40,327 nucleotides of DNA, from sequence record OZ035763.1; one strand, given 5' to 3'. Below the pieces are notes generated by a model. It was not told the DNA's origin. It saw only the letters and a list, made by a program, of their open reading frames with translations, and ran no database searches. A program made the position numbers and the translations under genes. Shown one piece after another: positions 1-40,327 of this stretch (positions within the stretch are counted from its first letter, which is position 1; each line of letters opens with the position of its first letter). This DNA is from Teseptimavirus PDP351P2.

Positions 1-29
1 TGGAAGAAAGCCAATAAGGAGTGATATGT

Positions 30-847: not shown

Positions 848-1330
848 GTGTCTACTCAATCCAATCGTAATGCGCTCGTAGTGGCGCAACTGAAAGGAGA
901 CTTCGTAGCGTTTTTGTTCGTCTTATGGAAGGCTCTGAACTTACCTGTACCAACTAAGTGTCAGATTGACATGGCTAAGGTACTGGCGAATGGAGACAAC
1001 AAGAAGTTCATCCTACAGGCTTTCCGTGGTATCGGTAAGTCATTCATCACATGTGCGTTCGTTGTGTGGTCCTTATGGAGAGACCCTCAGTTGAAGATAC
1101 TCATTGTATCAGCCTCTAAGGAACGTGCAGACGCTAACTCCATCTTTATTAAGAACATCATTGACCTGCTGCCGTTTCTCAGCGAGTTGAAGCCAAGACC
1201 CGGACAGCGTGACTCTGTGATTAGTTTCGACGTAGGTCCAGCTAAGCCTGACCACTCTCCTAGTGTAAAATCGGTAGGTATCACTGGTCAGTTAACTGGT
1301 AGCCGTGCTGACATTATTATTGCGGACGAT
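848..1330 (+). CDS. 19: terminase large subunit, exon 1 (codons 1-161)
   Basis: [19 protein letters not shown]... matches recalled T7 gp19 N-terminus; ATPase motif GIGKSF; frame ends ...IIIADD then GAA TAA. Confidence 0.9.
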
Positions 1331-2166
1331 GAATAACCATGTCGTCCTTAAACCCATCTAAACAGGGAAACCCGGAGCCTAACATGGTATACGGCAATCC
1401 TGTGCTAAATGAGACAGCCATAAAGAGCCTTATAGGCTCCCTAAGCGTCTCTAAATGCCAAACGACTAAGTAGTAGGGCCAAGTGGCTCGAAACGGTGGG
1501 AGAGCATTTACGGATGCTCTAAGATATAGTCTCGTCTATGGTGAGAAGCCATAGCACCATTTATTACGTAACACATAAGGAGTCTAACATGACCACTATG
1601 AAGAAAACTCGATATGAAGTAGGTTCAATCCATGAGTCCCCTAAAGGTCCGCTCAAGGTCCTCGAGTACATTCCGGGATATAAGGACCGCTCAACAGGTA
1701 AAAAAGTACATCCTCGCGTAGTAATTCGTATGATGAACACAGGGACTGTGCTCAACGTTCAAACCACGAATATACCAGATGGTAAGTTTGAGGACTATCG
1801 ACGTCCCACAGTTTACGGCATTGGGTATATAGGGTCTTCCATTAAAATCACCGCTAGAGGGACATTCATTCGGCGTGTGTATGACCTATGGGCCAACATG
1901 CTTAAGCGCGTGGTTCATGAGTATCAGGGAGTATCCGTGGACCCAAGATGGCTCAACTTTACGAATTTCTTGGCGACTATTCCTGATGTTAAGGGATATG
2001 CTGCGTGGGAGCGTGGTGAGGATGTTCATCTGGATAAAGACCTAGCTGGGAATAAACGATACTCATTGGAGAACTGTGCGTTCATTCCAGCTAAAGACAA
2101 CATTCGAGAGTCTTCGTTACGTAGGTGGCGTAAGAAATAACGAGCTTACGTTAAGATAATTATTCG
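1331..2166 (+). mobile_element. putative group I self-splicing intron interrupting gene 19
   Basis: Removing 836 bp restores a continuous 586-codon frame (ADD|VEIPSN as in T7 gp19); exon ends in T, insert ends in G; intron 1341-1347 GTCGTCC pairs with exon 1324-1330 GGACGAT giving a U-G wobble at the 5' splice site; core-like GACTAAG (1464-1470) and AAGATATAGTC (1521-1531). Confidence 0.75.
1589..2140 (+). CDS. intron-encoded putative homing endonuclease, 183 aa, degenerate HNH-like C-terminal motif
   Basis: ORF inside the insert with own SD (AAGGAG 8 nt upstream of ATG 1589); C-terminus VHLDKDLAGNKRYSLENCAFIPAKDN resembles an HNH motif; track ORF begins at upstream ATG 1538. Confidence 0.55.
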   Translation: MTTMKKTRYEVGSIHESPKGPLKVLEYIPGYKDRSTGKKVHPRVVIRMMNTGTVLNVQTTNIPDGKFEDYRRPTVYGIGYIGSSIKITARGTFIRRVYDLWANMLKRVVHEYQGVSVDPRWLNFTNFLATIPDVKGYAAWERGEDVHLDKDLAGNKRYSLENCAFIPAKDNIRESSLRRWRKK

Positions 2167-3444
2167 GTGGAAATTCCATCTAACAGTGCAACTATGGGTG
2201 CCCGTGAGAAGCTATGGACTCTCGTTCAGGAGTTCGCTGCGTTACTTAAACCGCTGCCTTCCTCTCGCGTTATCTACCTTGGTACGCCTCAGACTGAGAT
2301 GACTCTCTATAAGGAACTTGAGGATAACCGTGGGTATACCACTATCATCTGGCCCGCTCTGTACCCAAGGACTCGTGAAGAGAACCTATATTACGCACAG
2401 CGCCTTGCTCCTATGCTGCGTGCTGAGTACGATGAGAACCCTGAGGCACTCGCTGGGACTCCTACTGACCCTGTGCGCTTTGACCGTGATGACCTTCGTG
2501 AGCGTGAGTTGGAATACGGTAAGGCTGGCTTCACACTACAGTTCATGCTTAACCCGAATCTGAGTGATGCCGAGAAGTACCCTCTGAGGCTCCGTGACGC
2601 TATCGTAGCGGCCTTAGACTTAGAGAAGGCCCCAATGCATTACCAGTGGCTTCCGAACCGTCAGAACATCATTGAGGACCTTCCTAACGTTGGTCTTAAG
2701 GGTGATGACCTTCATACTTACCACGATTGCTCCAACAACTCTGGTCAGTACCAACAGAAGATTCTGGTCATTGACCCTAGTGGTCGCGGTAAGGACGAAA
2801 CAGGTTACGCTGTACTGTACACCCTGAACGGTTACATCTACCTTATGGAAGCTGGAGGTTTCCGTGATGGCTACTCCGATAAGACCCTTGAGTTGCTCGC
2901 TAAGAAAGCCAAGCAATGGGGAGTCCAGACGGTTGTCTATGAGAGTAACTTCGGTGACGGTATGTTCGGTAAGGTATTCAGTCCTATCCTTCTTAAACAC
3001 CACAACTGTGCTATGGAAGAGATTCGTGCTCGTGGTATGAAGGAAATGCGTATTTGTGATACCCTTGAGCCAGTCATGCAGACTCACCGCCTTGTCATTC
3101 GTGATGAGGTCATTAGGGCCGACTATCAGTCCGCTCGTGACGTAGACGGTAAGCATGACGTTAAGTATTCACTGTTCTACCAGATGACCCGTATCACTCG
3201 TGAGAAAGGTGCTCTGGCTCATGATGACCGATTGGATGCCCTTGCGTTAGGCATTGAGTATCTCCGTGAGTCCATGCAGTTGGATTCCGTTAAGGTAGAA
3301 GGTGAAGTGCTTGCTGACTTCCTTGAGGAGCACATGATGCGCCCTACGGTAGCTGCTACGCATATCATTGAGATGTCTGTGGGAGGAGTTGATGTGTACT
3401 CTGAGGACGATGAGGGATACGGTACGTCTTTCATTGAGTGGTGA
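2167..3444 (+). CDS. 19: terminase large subunit, exon 2 (codons 162-586)
   Basis: Frame resumes GTG GAA ATT ([17 protein letters not shown]...), collinear with recalled T7 gp19 to the C-terminus ...GYGTSFIEW. Confidence 0.9.
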
Positions 3445-37300: not shown

Positions 37301-38340
37301 AGTATTCCACACAGGAACTGGCTGCTCGCTCTCCGTGGACTAAGCTGCTGAACGGAACCACTAACTACCTTCTGGATGCTGCGCGTCAAGGTATGCTTGG
37401 GGACGTTATTAGTGCCACCCTAACAGGTAAGACTACCCGCTGGGAGAAAGAAGGATTCCTTCGGGGTGCCTCAGTAACTCCTGAGCAGATGGCTGGAATC
37501 AAGGCTCTCATCAAGGAACATATGGTACGTGGTGAGGACGGGAAGTTTACAGTTAAGGACAAGCAAGCGTTCTCTATGGACCCTCGTGCTATGGACTTAT
37601 GGAGACTGGCTGACAAGGTAGCTGATGAGGCAATGCTACGTCCACATAAGGTGTCCTTACAGGATTCCCATGCGTTCGGAGCACTAGGTAAGATGGTTAT
37701 GCAGTTTAAGACTTTCACTATCAAGTCCCTTAACTCTAAGTTCCTGCGAACCTTCTACGATGGATACAAGAACAACCGAGCGATTGACGCTGCGCTGAGC
37801 ATTATCACCTCTATGGGCCTAGCTGGTGGTTTCTACGCTATGGCTGCTCACGTCAAAGCATACGCTCTTCCTAAGGAGAAACGTAAGGAGTACTTGGAGC
37901 GTGCACTGGACCCAACCATGATTGCCCACGCTGCGTTGTCTCGTAGTTCTCACTTGGGTGCTCCTTTGGCTATGGTTGACCTAGTTGGTGGTGCCTTAGG
38001 GCTCGAGTCCTCCAAGATGGCTCGCTCTACGATTCTACCTAAGGACACCATGAAGGAACGTGACCCAAACAAACCGTACACCTCTAGAGAGGTAATGGGA
38101 GCTATTGGTTCGAACCTTCTGGAGCAGATGCCTTCCGCTGGCTTTGTGGCTAACGTAGGGGCTACCTTAATGAATGCTGCTGGCGTGGTAAACTCACCTA
38201 ACAAAGCAACCGAGCAGGACTTCATGACTGGCTTGATGAACTCTACCAAGGAGTTAGTACCTAACGACCCATTGACTCAACAGCTTGTGTTGAAGATTTA
38301 TGAGGCGAACGGTGTTAACTTGAGGGAGCGTAGGAAATAA
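34384..38340 (+). CDS. 16: internal virion protein D with N-terminal lytic transglycosylase domain (T7 gp16 homolog)
   Basis: 1318 aa; N-terminus ...VAWTESRFVPTAKSKTGPLGMMQFT... (SLT-type motif). Confidence 0.97.
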   Translation: MDKYDKNVPSDYDGLFQKAADANGVSYDLLRKVAWTESRFVPTAKSKTGPLGMMQFTKETAKALGLRATDGPDDDRLNPELAINAAAKHLAGLVGKFDGDELKAALAYNQGEGRLGNPQLEAYSKGDFASISEEGRNYMRNLLDVAKSPMAGQLETFGGITPKGKGIPAEVGLAGIGHKQKVTQELPESTSFDVKGIEQEAPAKPFAKDFWETHGETLDEYNSRSTFFGFKDAAEAELSNSVAGMAFRAGRLDNGFDVFKDTITPTRWNSHIWTPEELEKIRTEVKNPAYINVVTGGSPENLDDLIKLANDNFENDSRAAEAGLGAKLSAGIIGAGVDPLSYVPMVGVTGKGFKLINKALVVGAESAALNVASEGLRTSVAGGDADYAGAALGGFVFGAGMSAISDAVAAGLKRSKPEAEFDNEFIGPMMRMEARETARNANSADLSRMNTENMKFEGEHNGVPYEDLPTEKGAVVLHDGSVLSASNPINPKTLKEFSEVDPEKAARGIKLAGFTEIGLKTLGSDDADIRRVAIDLVRSPTGMQSGASGKFGATASDIHERLHGTDQRTYNDLYKAMSDAMKDPEFSTGGAKMSREETRYTIYRRAALAIERPELQKALTPSERIVMDIIKRHFDTKRELMENPAIFGNTKAVSIFPESRHKGTYVPHVYDRHAKALMIQRYGAEGLQEGIARSWMNSYVSRPEVKARVDEMLKEVHGVKEVTPEMVEKYAMDKAYGISHSDQFTNSSIIEENIEGLVGIENNSFLEARNLFDSDLSITMPDGQQFSVNDLRDFDMFRIMPAYDRRINGDIAIMGSTGKTTKELKDEILALKAKAEGDGKKTGEVHALMDTVKILTGRARRNQDTVWETSLRSINDLGFFAKNAYMGAQNITEIAGMIVTGNVRTLSHGIPILRDTLYKSKPVSAKELKELHASLFGKEVDQLIRPKRADIVQRLREATDTGPAVANIVGTLKYSTQELAARSPWTKLLNGTTNYLLDAARQGMLGDVISATLTGKTTRWEKEGFLRGASVTPEQMAGIKALIKEHMVRGEDGKFTVKDKQAFSMDPRAMDLWRLADKVADEAMLRPHKVSLQDSHAFGALGKMVMQFKTFTIKSLNSKFLRTFYDGYKNNRAIDAALSIITSMGLAGGFYAMAAHVKAYALPKEKRKEYLERALDPTMIAHAALSRSSHLGAPLAMVDLVGGALGLESSKMARSTILPKDTMKERDPNKPYTSREVMGAIGSNLLEQMPSAGFVANVGATLMNAAGVVNSPNKATEQDFMTGLMNSTKELVPNDPLTQQLVLKIYEANGVNLRERRK

Positions 38341-38360
38341 TACGACTCACTATAGGGAGA
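38338..38360 (+). promoter_or_regulatory. T7 RNAP promoter phi17
   Basis: TAATACGACTCACTATAGGGAGA exact consensus. Confidence 0.9.
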
Positions 38361-38412
38361 GGCGAAATAATCTTCTCCCTGTAGTCTCTTAGATTTACTT
38401 TAAGGAGGTCAA

Positions 38413-40089
38413 ATGGCTAACGCAATTAAAACAGTTTTGACTTACCAGTTAGATGGCTCCAATCGTGATTTTAATATCCCGTTTGAGTATCTAGCCCGTA
38501 AGTTCGTAGTGGTAACTCTTATTGGTGTAGACCGAAAGGTCCTTACGATTAATACAGACTATCGCTTTGCTACGCGTACTACCATCTCACTGACCAAGGC
38601 TTGGGGTCCAGCGGATGGCTATACTACCATCGAGTTACGTCGAGTAACCTCCACAACCGACCGCTTGGTTGACTTTACGGACGGCTCAATCCTCCGTGCG
38701 TATGACCTTAACGTCGCTCAGATTCAAACGATGCATGTAGCAGAAGAGGCCCGTGACCTAACTGCCGATACTATCGGTGTCAATAATGATGGTCACTTGG
38801 ATGCGCGTGGTCGTCGAATTGTGAACCTAGCGAACGCCGTGGATGACCGTGACGCTGTTCCGCTTGGTCAACTAAAGACGATGAACCAGAGCTCTTGGCA
38901 AGCTCGCAATGAGGCTCTACAGTTCCGTAATGAGGCTGAGACTTTCAGAAATCAAGCGGAGGGCTTTAAGAACGAGTCCAGTACCAACGCTACGAACACA
39001 AAGCAGTGGCGTGATGAGGCTAAGGGGTTCCGAGATGAAGCTGAGCAGTTCAAGAATACGGCTGGTCAATATGCCACATCTGCTGGTAACTCTGCGGCTG
39101 CTGCTCATCAATCTGAGGTAAATGCTGGGAACTCTGCTACAGCATCTACTAACTCTGCGCATTTGGCAGAACAACACGCAGACCGTGCGGAACGCGAAGC
39201 AGACAAGCTGGGGAATTTTAACGGACTAGCTGGCGCAATTGACAGGGTGGATGGAACCAATGTGTACTGGAAAGGAGGTATCCATGCGAACGGACGCCTT
39301 TACCTTACCTCAGATGGTTTTGACTGTGGTCAGTATCAACAGTTCTTTGGTGGTGGCACTAATAGTTATTCTATCATGGAGTGGGGAGATGATAACGGAT
39401 GGCTGATGCATGTTCAACGTAGAGAGGGGACAACAGCGATAGGCGGTAACATCCAGTTAGTAGTAAACGGACAGATCATCACCCAAGGTGGAGCCATGAC
39501 CGGTCAGCTAAAATTGCAGAATGGGCATGTTCTTCAATTAGAGTCCGCATCCGACAAGGCTCACTATATTCTATCTAAAGATGGTAACAGGAATAACTGG
39601 TACATTGGTAGAGGGTCAGATAACAACAATGACTGTACCTTCCACTCCTATGTACATGGTACGACCTTAACACTCAAGCAGGACTATGCAGTAGTTAACA
39701 AACACTTCCACGTAGGTCAGGCCGTTGTGTCCACTGATGGTAATATTCAAGGTACTAAGTGGGGAGGTAAGTGGCTTGATGTTTACCTAAACGATACTTA
39801 CGTTAAGAAGACAATGGCTTGGACTCAAGTATGGGCTGCTGATAGTGGTAGGTTCCTGCCAGGAGGTTCTCAGACTGGTACTCTCCCACAGGACTTGCGA
39901 TTCCGCAACATATGGATTAGGACCAAACACAACTATTGGAACTTCTTCCGAACTGGTCCTGATGGTATCTACTTCCTTTCAGCCGAGGGCGGTTGGCTAA
40001 AATTCCAGATACACTCTAATGGCAGGGTATTTAAGAACATAGAGGATAGAGATGCGCCTCCAACAGCAATAGCCGTAGAGGACGTGTAA
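38413..40089 (+). CDS. 17: tail fiber protein (T7 gp17 homolog) with divergent C-terminal tip
   Basis: 558 aa; N-terminal two thirds near-identical to recalled T7 gp17; distal roughly 100 aa differ. Confidence 0.95.
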   Translation: MANAIKTVLTYQLDGSNRDFNIPFEYLARKFVVVTLIGVDRKVLTINTDYRFATRTTISLTKAWGPADGYTTIELRRVTSTTDRLVDFTDGSILRAYDLNVAQIQTMHVAEEARDLTADTIGVNNDGHLDARGRRIVNLANAVDDRDAVPLGQLKTMNQSSWQARNEALQFRNEAETFRNQAEGFKNESSTNATNTKQWRDEAKGFRDEAEQFKNTAGQYATSAGNSAAAAHQSEVNAGNSATASTNSAHLAEQHADRAEREADKLGNFNGLAGAIDRVDGTNVYWKGGIHANGRLYLTSDGFDCGQYQQFFGGGTNSYSIMEWGDDNGWLMHVQRREGTTAIGGNIQLVVNGQIITQGGAMTGQLKLQNGHVLQLESASDKAHYILSKDGNRNNWYIGRGSDNNNDCTFHSYVHGTTLTLKQDYAVVNKHFHVGQAVVSTDGNIQGTKWGGKWLDVYLNDTYVKKTMAWTQVWAADSGRFLPGGSQTGTLPQDLRFRNIWIRTKHNYWNFFRTGPDGIYFLSAEGGWLKFQIHSNGRVFKNIEDRDAPPTAIAVEDV

Positions 40090-40147
40090 TAAGCATCAAA
40101 GGAACTACTTTAAGTCCACGGATGGACTATCACACTAAGGAGGACAC

Positions 40148-40327
40148 ATGTTGTCATTGGACTTTAACAACGAACTAATTAAAGCGGCACCGATTGTAGG
40201 TACAGGTGTTGCGGATGTTAGTGCAAGACTGTTCTTCGGGCTAAGCCTTAATGAATGGTTCTATGTGGCTGCTATCGCCTACACAGTGGTTCAGATTGGT
40301 GCCAAGGTAGTCGATAAGATGATTGAC
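40148..40327 (+). CDS. 17.5: holin (T7 gp17.5 homolog), 3' end truncated by the window edge
   Basis: MLSLDFNNELIKAAPIVGTGVADVSARLFFGLSLNEWFYVAAIAYTVVQIGAKVVDKMID; remainder wraps to window positions 1-20. Confidence 0.85.
   Translation, partial: MLSLDFNNELIKAAPIVGTGVADVSARLFFGLSLNEWFYVAAIAYTVVQIGAKVVDKMID

Follow-up and report, generated by a model that had tools for sequence, protein, structure and literature searches.

A T7-like tail fibre with a T3/13a-class tip in Teseptimavirus PDP351P2: mosaic gene structure and probable LPS-core specificity

The tip domain is an established host-range determinant in the tail fibres of T7-group phages. A fibre gene that follows T7 over most of its length and departs from it at the tip raises the question of whether that tip is new, how it was acquired, and what it would recognize at the cell surface. 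We addressed this question for gene 17 of Teseptimavirus PDP351P2, using the whole stretch of DNA deposited as record OZ035763.1 (40,327 nucleotides), hereafter referred to as the window.

Gene 17 and the architecture of its product

The open reading frame (ORF) at 38413..40089 is identified by its sequence as the gp17 tail fibre gene of a T7-like (Teseptimavirus-type) phage, with a tip of a known class. All the gp17 peptides quoted in an earlier note on this DNA were found in its translation. The gene lies in the canonical T7 slot, in the order gene 16, phi17 promoter, gene 17, and holin gene 17.5, with the following elements:

38338..38360, + strand: phi17 late promoter, an exact 23-bp T7 RNA polymerase consensus, TAATACGACTCACTATAGGGAGA (exact-match scan)
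38401..38409, + strand: Shine-Dalgarno sequence (ribosome-binding site), TAAGGAGGT, 3 nt before the gene 17 ATG
38413..40089, + strand: gene 17, tail fibre protein gp17, 558 aa (ORF with ATG start and TAA stop)
40149..40327, continuing at window 1-24, + strand: holin gene 17.5, split by the window end (gene order)

The promoter lies 52 nt 5' of gene 17 and overlaps the stop codon of gene 16, which encodes a 1318-aa product. It is one of five exact copies of this 23-bp sequence in the whole window, and an identical promoter is annotated as phi17 in the records of 13a and T7. Because the last 7 codons and the stop codon of the holin gene occupy positions 1-24, the window represents a circular permutation of a complete T7-like genome of ~40.3 kb; gene 18 follows the holin gene, and genes 18 to 19.5 and the genome ends sit at the window start instead of 3' of gene 17. 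The exact gp17 protein, in matching gene order, was also found on a Logan assembly contig from a single sequencing run (ERR12949605), which may be the same data set and so does not independently confirm the substitutions private to this allele.

When the complete window was compared with the phage collection, identities over long stretches did not rise above approximately 95%. JeanTinguely came closest over the first 25 kb (about 92% identity across 87% of that length) and 13a over the last 15 kb (94.6%), and the genome looks, from these comparisons, like a distinct Teseptimavirus-level lineage of mosaic ancestry. A separate feature was observed in gene 19 (terminase large subunit, 848..3444). 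An insertion of ~850 bp at 1291-2165 breaks this gene into two ORFs, 848..1336 (162 aa) and 2167..3444 (425 aa), and has no counterpart in T7, T3, or 13a. Positions 1291-1554 match the Rfam family Intron_gpI with 49 bits, just under the gathering score of 50 (E = 3.7e-11). The insertion also holds a 200-aa ORF at 1538..2140, for which no Pfam match was found and which is probably an intron-encoded homing endonuclease. The Salmonella phages Vi06, Sal_R1S, and CHRF_10027 share the insertion, under the annotation HNH endonuclease, at 88-90% identity, and the Yersinia fPS phages share it at about 71%.

The gp17 protein carries the domains PF03906, PF20744, and PF12604 in the same order as T7, and was divided as follows:

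38413..38898, + strand: N-terminal tail-attachment domain, aa 1-162 (Pfam PF03906, Phage_T7_tail, E = 1.6e-73)
38899..39522, + strand: shaft, aa 163-370 (AF2 secondary structure, of low confidence there)
39523..39801, + strand: pyramid (trimerisation) domain, aa 371-463 (Pfam PF20744, E = 1e-37; aligns to PDB 4A0T/4A0U)
39802..40086, + strand: predicted receptor-binding tip domain, aa 464-558 (Pfam PF12604, 30.8 bits against a cutoff of 22.5)

The PF03906 match spans profile positions 1-157 of 157, and this domain aligns with the cryo-EM chains 8E4G/8DSP. A phmmer search of the PDB returned T7 gp17 at the top (7BOZ/7EY9, E = 0; 4A0T/4A0U, E ~1e-97, with 7.5e-98 for 4A0T). The full-length AF2 monomer was weak outside the tip (mean pLDDT of 63, pTM of 0.26), and the tip part alone was used. 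In the shaft this single-chain, non-trimeric model places helices at residues 151-203 and 214-275 with pLDDT of roughly 40 to 65, and a β-rich distal part beyond residue ~275, also with low confidence. The structure prediction proposed in the earlier note bore out a T7-like tip: with 25 homologues in the input, the expected strands of a β-sandwich were modelled confidently over residues 471-558 (pLDDT 86-95), and Foldseek gave 4A0U/4A0T as the first matches (E = 2e-27). The PF03906 domain, the pyramid and β-sandwich tip, and the gene position all place the protein in the T7-group gp17 family.

By analogy with the solved T7 homologue, and given an identity of 88-95% to the T7, T3, and 13a proteins, gp17 would form a homotrimer present as six fibres per virion. 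The N-terminal domain would dock the fibre onto the tail, and the coiled-coil and β shaft would hold out the pyramid domain and the C-terminal β-sandwich tip. The BC, DE, FG, and HI loops, which face outward from the tip, would then touch the lipopolysaccharide (LPS) core first, and reversibly, before irreversible adsorption, as is established for T7 and T3 (10.1101/699090, PMC8043750, PMC8594841).

Class of the tip and mosaic structure of the gene

Compared with T7 gp17 (NP_042005.1; PDB 4A0T/4A0U, 7EY9), the PDP351P2 protein has the same architecture and fold, with identities of 97.5% over aa 1-162, 90.4% over aa 163-370, 94.6% over aa 371-463, and 58.9% over aa 464-558. The earlier note had described the N-terminal two thirds as T7-like and roughly the last 100 residues as divergent. 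The second statement was accurate, the divergent block comprising ~103 residues (aa 456-558) with 58.3% identity to T7 and a 5-residue insertion; the first was right in kind, since aa 1-455 are 94.5% identical to T7, but understated the conserved share, which is about four fifths. The insertion follows T7 residue A478 and lies in BC, the first outward loop. The outward DE and HI loops differ from T7 as well, with CANNS in T7 against TKHNY in PDP351P2 for DE and ADSRSV against EDRDAP for HI.

This divergent tip belongs to a class that is already known. Over aa 456-558, it is 94.2% identical to 13a, 91.3% to AH67C600_Q5, 89.3% to T3 and T7M, and 84.5-88.3% to the Y. pestis phages phiA1122, YpP-Y, YpP-R, YpsP-G, and vB_YpYeO9; for the tip domain proper (aa 464-558), the values are 93.7% to 13a and 89.5% to T3. 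The BC loop longer by five residues than in T7 is common to all the T3-class tips compared, and the 558-aa length of the PDP351P2 protein also agrees with that class. A tblastn search of 50,697 phage records with the tip separated two classes, one at ≥85% identity (the T3 class, 21 records) and the other at ≤65% (T7 and others), and the PDP351P2 tip falls in the first by its identities of at least ~85% to T3-class tips and of ~60% to T7-class tips. The exact gp17 protein falls in a 90% cluster that holds the T3, 13a, and phiA1122 proteins. No tip closer than that of 13a was found in GenBank phages, IMG/VR, and metagenome contigs, with 17 further members of the 90% cluster, which may include a closer unpublished allele, lying outside the comparison, and bacterial genome contigs yielded no relatives. 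A protein search of a word-indexed database with the tip alone returned a single 59% fragment.

Among the deposited relatives, a contig of 5837 bp (IMGVR_UViG_2898447996_000002) carries a T3-type gp17 under the label “phage tail protein” of Xylella fastidiosa, and the other Xylella-labelled gp17 entries are partial, on contigs of 338-575 bp. These entries most likely reflect contamination of assemblies with a T3-like phage and not a Xylella gene.

On these alignments, the tip differs from T7 yet is not new, being assigned to the T3/13a/phiA1122 class. The alignment with T7, T3, and Yersinia phage gp17 suggested in the earlier note thus upheld the divergence from T7 and placed the tip in a known class, which the note had missed. 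A new receptor-binding module, directed at a receptor that differs from the ones known for the T7 group, could be argued from the 58% identity to T7, the indel in an outward loop, and six residues private to this tip. Against it stand the 94% and 89% identities to 13a and T3, the equal loop lengths, the T7 fold, and the shared cluster, and we regard this reading as extremely unlikely and as effectively refuted by the alignments.

The closest known fibre is gp17 of 13a (YP_002003979.1), which is likewise 558 aa long, is 95.0% identical overall and 100% identical in the pyramid domain, and combines a largely T7-like shaft with a T3-class tip behind the same phi17 promoter and in the same gene order. 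It differs in that the PDP351P2 allele has a T3/phiA1122-like patch at codons ~250-300, that the 5' 900 nt are far more diverged, and that the PDP351P2 shaft carries private changes, W339G among them. Six substitutions separate the tips: K480R, Y481F, D489G, R505K, N506H, and S544E. Gp17 of T3 (NP_523342.1) and its counterparts in phiA1122, YpP-Y, YpP-R, and YpsP-G share the tip class and the loop lengths, whereas the pyramid domain of T3 and the Y. pestis phages is just 90% identical to that of PDP351P2. Eleven tip residues differ from T3, including D477, P483, and R503 of PDP351P2 in addition to the six private ones.

The DNA revealed how the two parts of the gene are joined. Relative to T7, only 2 mismatches occur across 39428-39770 (343 nt), and about 165 (~33%) occur across 39771-40267 (~500 nt), a zone that covers the tip and the noncoding spacer, reaches two thirds of the way into the holin gene, and includes synonymous sites. 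Identity to T7 recovers at about 40270-40320. These mismatch positions delimit one feature:

39771-40320, + strand: T3/13a-type recombination cassette relative to T7, ~550 bp, running from ~10 codons before the end of the pyramid domain through the tip and the intergenic spacer into holin gene 17.5, most of which it includes

The cassette is near-identical in 13a and T3. Along the gene, sliding DNA identity was 99% to T7 over nt 1-150; 97% to T3/phiA1122, against 84-87% to T7 and 13a, over nt 751-900 (codons ~250-300); 98-100% to both T7 and 13a over nt 976-1350 (about 99% to T7 over nt ~1016-1358); and 96-100% to 13a, against 61-68% to T7, over nt 1359-1677. Gene 17 is therefore a multi-parent recombination mosaic, in which the last ~105 codons form a T3/13a/phiA1122-type cassette together with the spacer and the larger part of the holin gene. 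The N-terminal part that the earlier note likened to T7 does match it at the protein level, but at the DNA level it is a patchwork of T7, T3/phiA1122, and 13a-like stretches.

Synonymous divergence (dS) from 13a is 0.31-0.54 in codons 1-300 and 0.015-0.04 in codons 301-558. The 13a DNA shows 15 mismatches over 39428-40320, and mismatches are dense from 40321, across the wrap, to window position ~180. The low dS and the near-identity up to 40320 indicate that the distal half, from about nt 1000 of the gene, shares very recent ancestry with 13a. In experiments, T3 and T7 have been shown to exchange parts of gene 17 at microhomologies (Lin et al., PMC3276506). An unused T7 promoter is noted ahead of gene 17 in the T3 record, which suggests that T7-like phages are the native carriers of the “T3-type” fibre.

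Tips generally evolve fast among tail fibre parts, and the difference from T7 might on that ground have arisen by gradual divergence in place. The jump in T7 mismatches at 39771 is, however, far beyond chance, rising from 2 in 343 nt to ~33% over 500 nt with synonymous sites, spacer, and holin gene affected alike; low divergence from T7 returns after the cassette, and the cassette is near-identical in 13a and T3. In-place divergence is contradicted by this abrupt step and by the cassette shared with 13a and T3, and we give it almost no credence compared with a cassette exchange.

Private residues and the outward loops of the tip

Although the tip is of a known class, it carries substitutions of its own. 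In a comparison with 14 proteins, 15 residues of gp17 were private to PDP351P2, six of them in the tip (R480, F481, G489, K505, H506, and E544); those in the shaft include G315, S318, I321, and G339. The last, W339G at codon 339 (39427-39429) of the distal shaft, adjoins the other three. Tryptophan occupies this position in 13 of the 14 compared proteins, and in AH67C600_Q5 a threonine is aligned there, with its own tryptophan shifted by one residue. W339G may be genuine or may stem from an error in sequencing.

The tip residues were placed relative to the following loops, whose bounds combine the secondary structure of the AF2 monomer, not a trimer, with the outward or inward status of homologous T7 residues (PMC8043750, 10.1101/699090):

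39838..39873, + strand: outward BC loop, aa 476-487 (alignments; AF2 loop at 476-485; orientation per the T7 papers PMC8043750 and 10.1101/699090)
39925..39936, + strand: outward DE loop, aa 505-508, with K505 and H506 (alignment and AF2)
40042..40059, + strand: end of strand H and outward HI loop, aa 544-549 (alignment and AF2)

In T7, the outward residues are G476, G479, N501, S519-G522, and D540-V544, and the inward residues are D489, R491, R493, G510, D512, and G532 (PMC8043750). R480 and F481 lie inside the BC loop, and G489 lies two residues past it. H506 aligns with T7 N501, a host-discriminating position at which the set of tolerated residues changes sharply from one E. coli host to another (PMC8043750). 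E544, which is an alanine in T3 and a serine in 13a and phiA1122, lies one residue before the HI loop. D547 is unchanged in PDP351P2; D547G, a host-range mutation of T3 (10.1101/699090), occurs naturally in two members of the cluster.

Each of the six private tip residues is at most two positions away from an outward loop (hypergeometric P = 0.005), and four are strictly inside one (P = 0.04), residues 489 and 544 being loop-adjacent; these loop-clustering tests are partly post hoc. The same holds for the variable sites among T3-class tips in general, 20 of 22 of which fall within this distance (P = 2e-7).

The nucleotide changes follow a similar pattern. In tip codons 456-558 there are 8 nucleotide differences from 13a, 7 of which are nonsynonymous, compared with 18 nonsynonymous and 66 synonymous differences in codons 1-300 (Fisher P = 4e-4 against the 7:1 of the tip). 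Since the split from 13a, the tip has thus changed almost only at the protein level, as would be expected from either selection or relaxed constraint on a receptor contact. The 7:1 ratio, based on only 8 events, is not distinct from the neutral expectation (P = 0.45), and positive selection in the tip is consequently not demonstrated. The data show a loss of purifying constraint at the loops, with which positive selection is compatible but unproven.

Two readings of the six substitutions were weighed. They may be neutral drift, or artefacts of sequencing or passage, on a fibre functionally equal to 13a gp17. The fit of the 7:1 ratio to neutrality agrees with this, as do the conservative nature of K480R, Y481F, and R505K and the tolerance of many outward-loop positions of T7 to substitution in deep mutational scanning (PMC8043750); moreover, a second independent isolate with this allele was not found among GenBank phages, IMG/VR, and metagenome and bacterial contigs. 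However, single loop substitutions in T3 and T7 repeatedly shift plating on LPS variants (10.1101/699090, PMC8043750), and N506H, D489G, and S544E alter the charge at receptor-facing positions. With regard to artefacts in particular, random sequencing errors would neither spare synonymous sites nor cluster near loops (P = 0.005). We hold drift or artefact to be a serious possibility, if one that falls short of an even chance. The other reading is that the substitutions are a recent adaptive change that gives PDP351P2 an LPS-core or host specificity absent from 13a, T3, and T7, a proposal that we put forward tentatively and consider rather unlikely. By analogy with the loop mutants of T3 and T7, the six private residues in or beside the loops may nevertheless fine-tune which LPS core variants are bound.

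Receptor specificity and host range

The consequences of exchanging such tips have been studied with engineered phages. T7 carrying the C-terminal part of gp17 from either T3 or 13a gains plating on E. coli ECOR16 (Ando et al., 10.1101/020891). With the T3-type tip, plaquing on K-12 is more than 10^5-fold worse, whereas the 13a tip keeps K-12 (10.1101/020891). PDP351P2 gp17 is a natural counterpart of the T7 phage engineered to carry the 13a C-terminal part (Ando et al. 2015, 10.1101/020891), in that both join a T7-type proximal fibre to a 13a-type tip, and that construct plated on ECOR16, on which T7 does not plate, with K-12 retained (10.1101/020891). The engineered fibre differs in being synthetic and codon optimised, with a designed junction and with the 13a loop residues in place of the six private ones.

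Within the class, the T3 loop mutations E525G and D547G and libraries in the BC and HI loops alter plating on waaG and waaC mutants (10.1101/699090), and tips of the T3/13a/phiA1122 class still bind the LPS core (Yehl et al., 10.1101/699090; Maffei et al., PMC8594841). The phenotypes attributed to the class, such as ECOR16 plating and dependence on outer-core glucose, come from T3 and 13a only (10.1101/020891, 10.1101/699090).

The earlier note had proposed a different LPS or receptor specificity, and hence a host range unlike that of T7. The published tip swaps with T3 and 13a, which change the host range of T7, make the latter plausible for PDP351P2. A different kind of receptor, on the other hand, is not what the class suggests, since its known members bind the LPS core; the fine specificity would be altered and the class of receptor would stay the same. 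As the tip is of the 13a/T3 class, its specificity should resemble that of 13a and not that of T7, and by this analogy the fibre most likely has a 13a/T3-like LPS-core specificity instead of a T7-like one.

The tip is not the sole determinant of plating. The N-terminal part of 13a gp17 also affected it (Ando et al., 10.1101/020891), which means that the tip alone does not fix the host range, and factors besides gp17 also shape it. It could then be that the host range differs from that of T7 mainly through such factors (gp11/gp12, gp7.3, and anti-defence genes), with the tip in a minor role. Exclusion systems and other genes do shape the plating of T3 and T7 (Lin et al., PMC3276506; Maffei et al., PMC8594841), and the remainder of the PDP351P2 genome reaches only about 90-94% identity with any of the listed phages. 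However, tip swaps alone suffice to move ECOR16 and K-12 plating among T7, T3, and 13a scaffolds (10.1101/020891), and a minor role for the tip seems to us improbable. The explanation that best accounts for the observations as a whole, and in which we have considerable confidence, is that of a mosaic T7-like gp17 with a tip and LPS-core specificity of the 13a/T3 class and with loops that are possibly fine-tuned.

For PDP351P2 itself, the class of the tip predicts that the phage would type with 13a/T3-like hosts and not with T7-like ones. The allele adds a further natural combination of loops to the T3/13a scaffold, usable for host-range engineering and otherwise of little import beyond annotation; if the adaptive reading of the six substitutions were true, it would be a natural equivalent of the engineered loop-mutant “phagebodies.” For the group, the cassette is another case of T7-group phages trading tip, spacer, and holin gene and then varying the outward loops of the tip, a logic of swapping and then varying loops that has already been put to use in tail fibre engineering.
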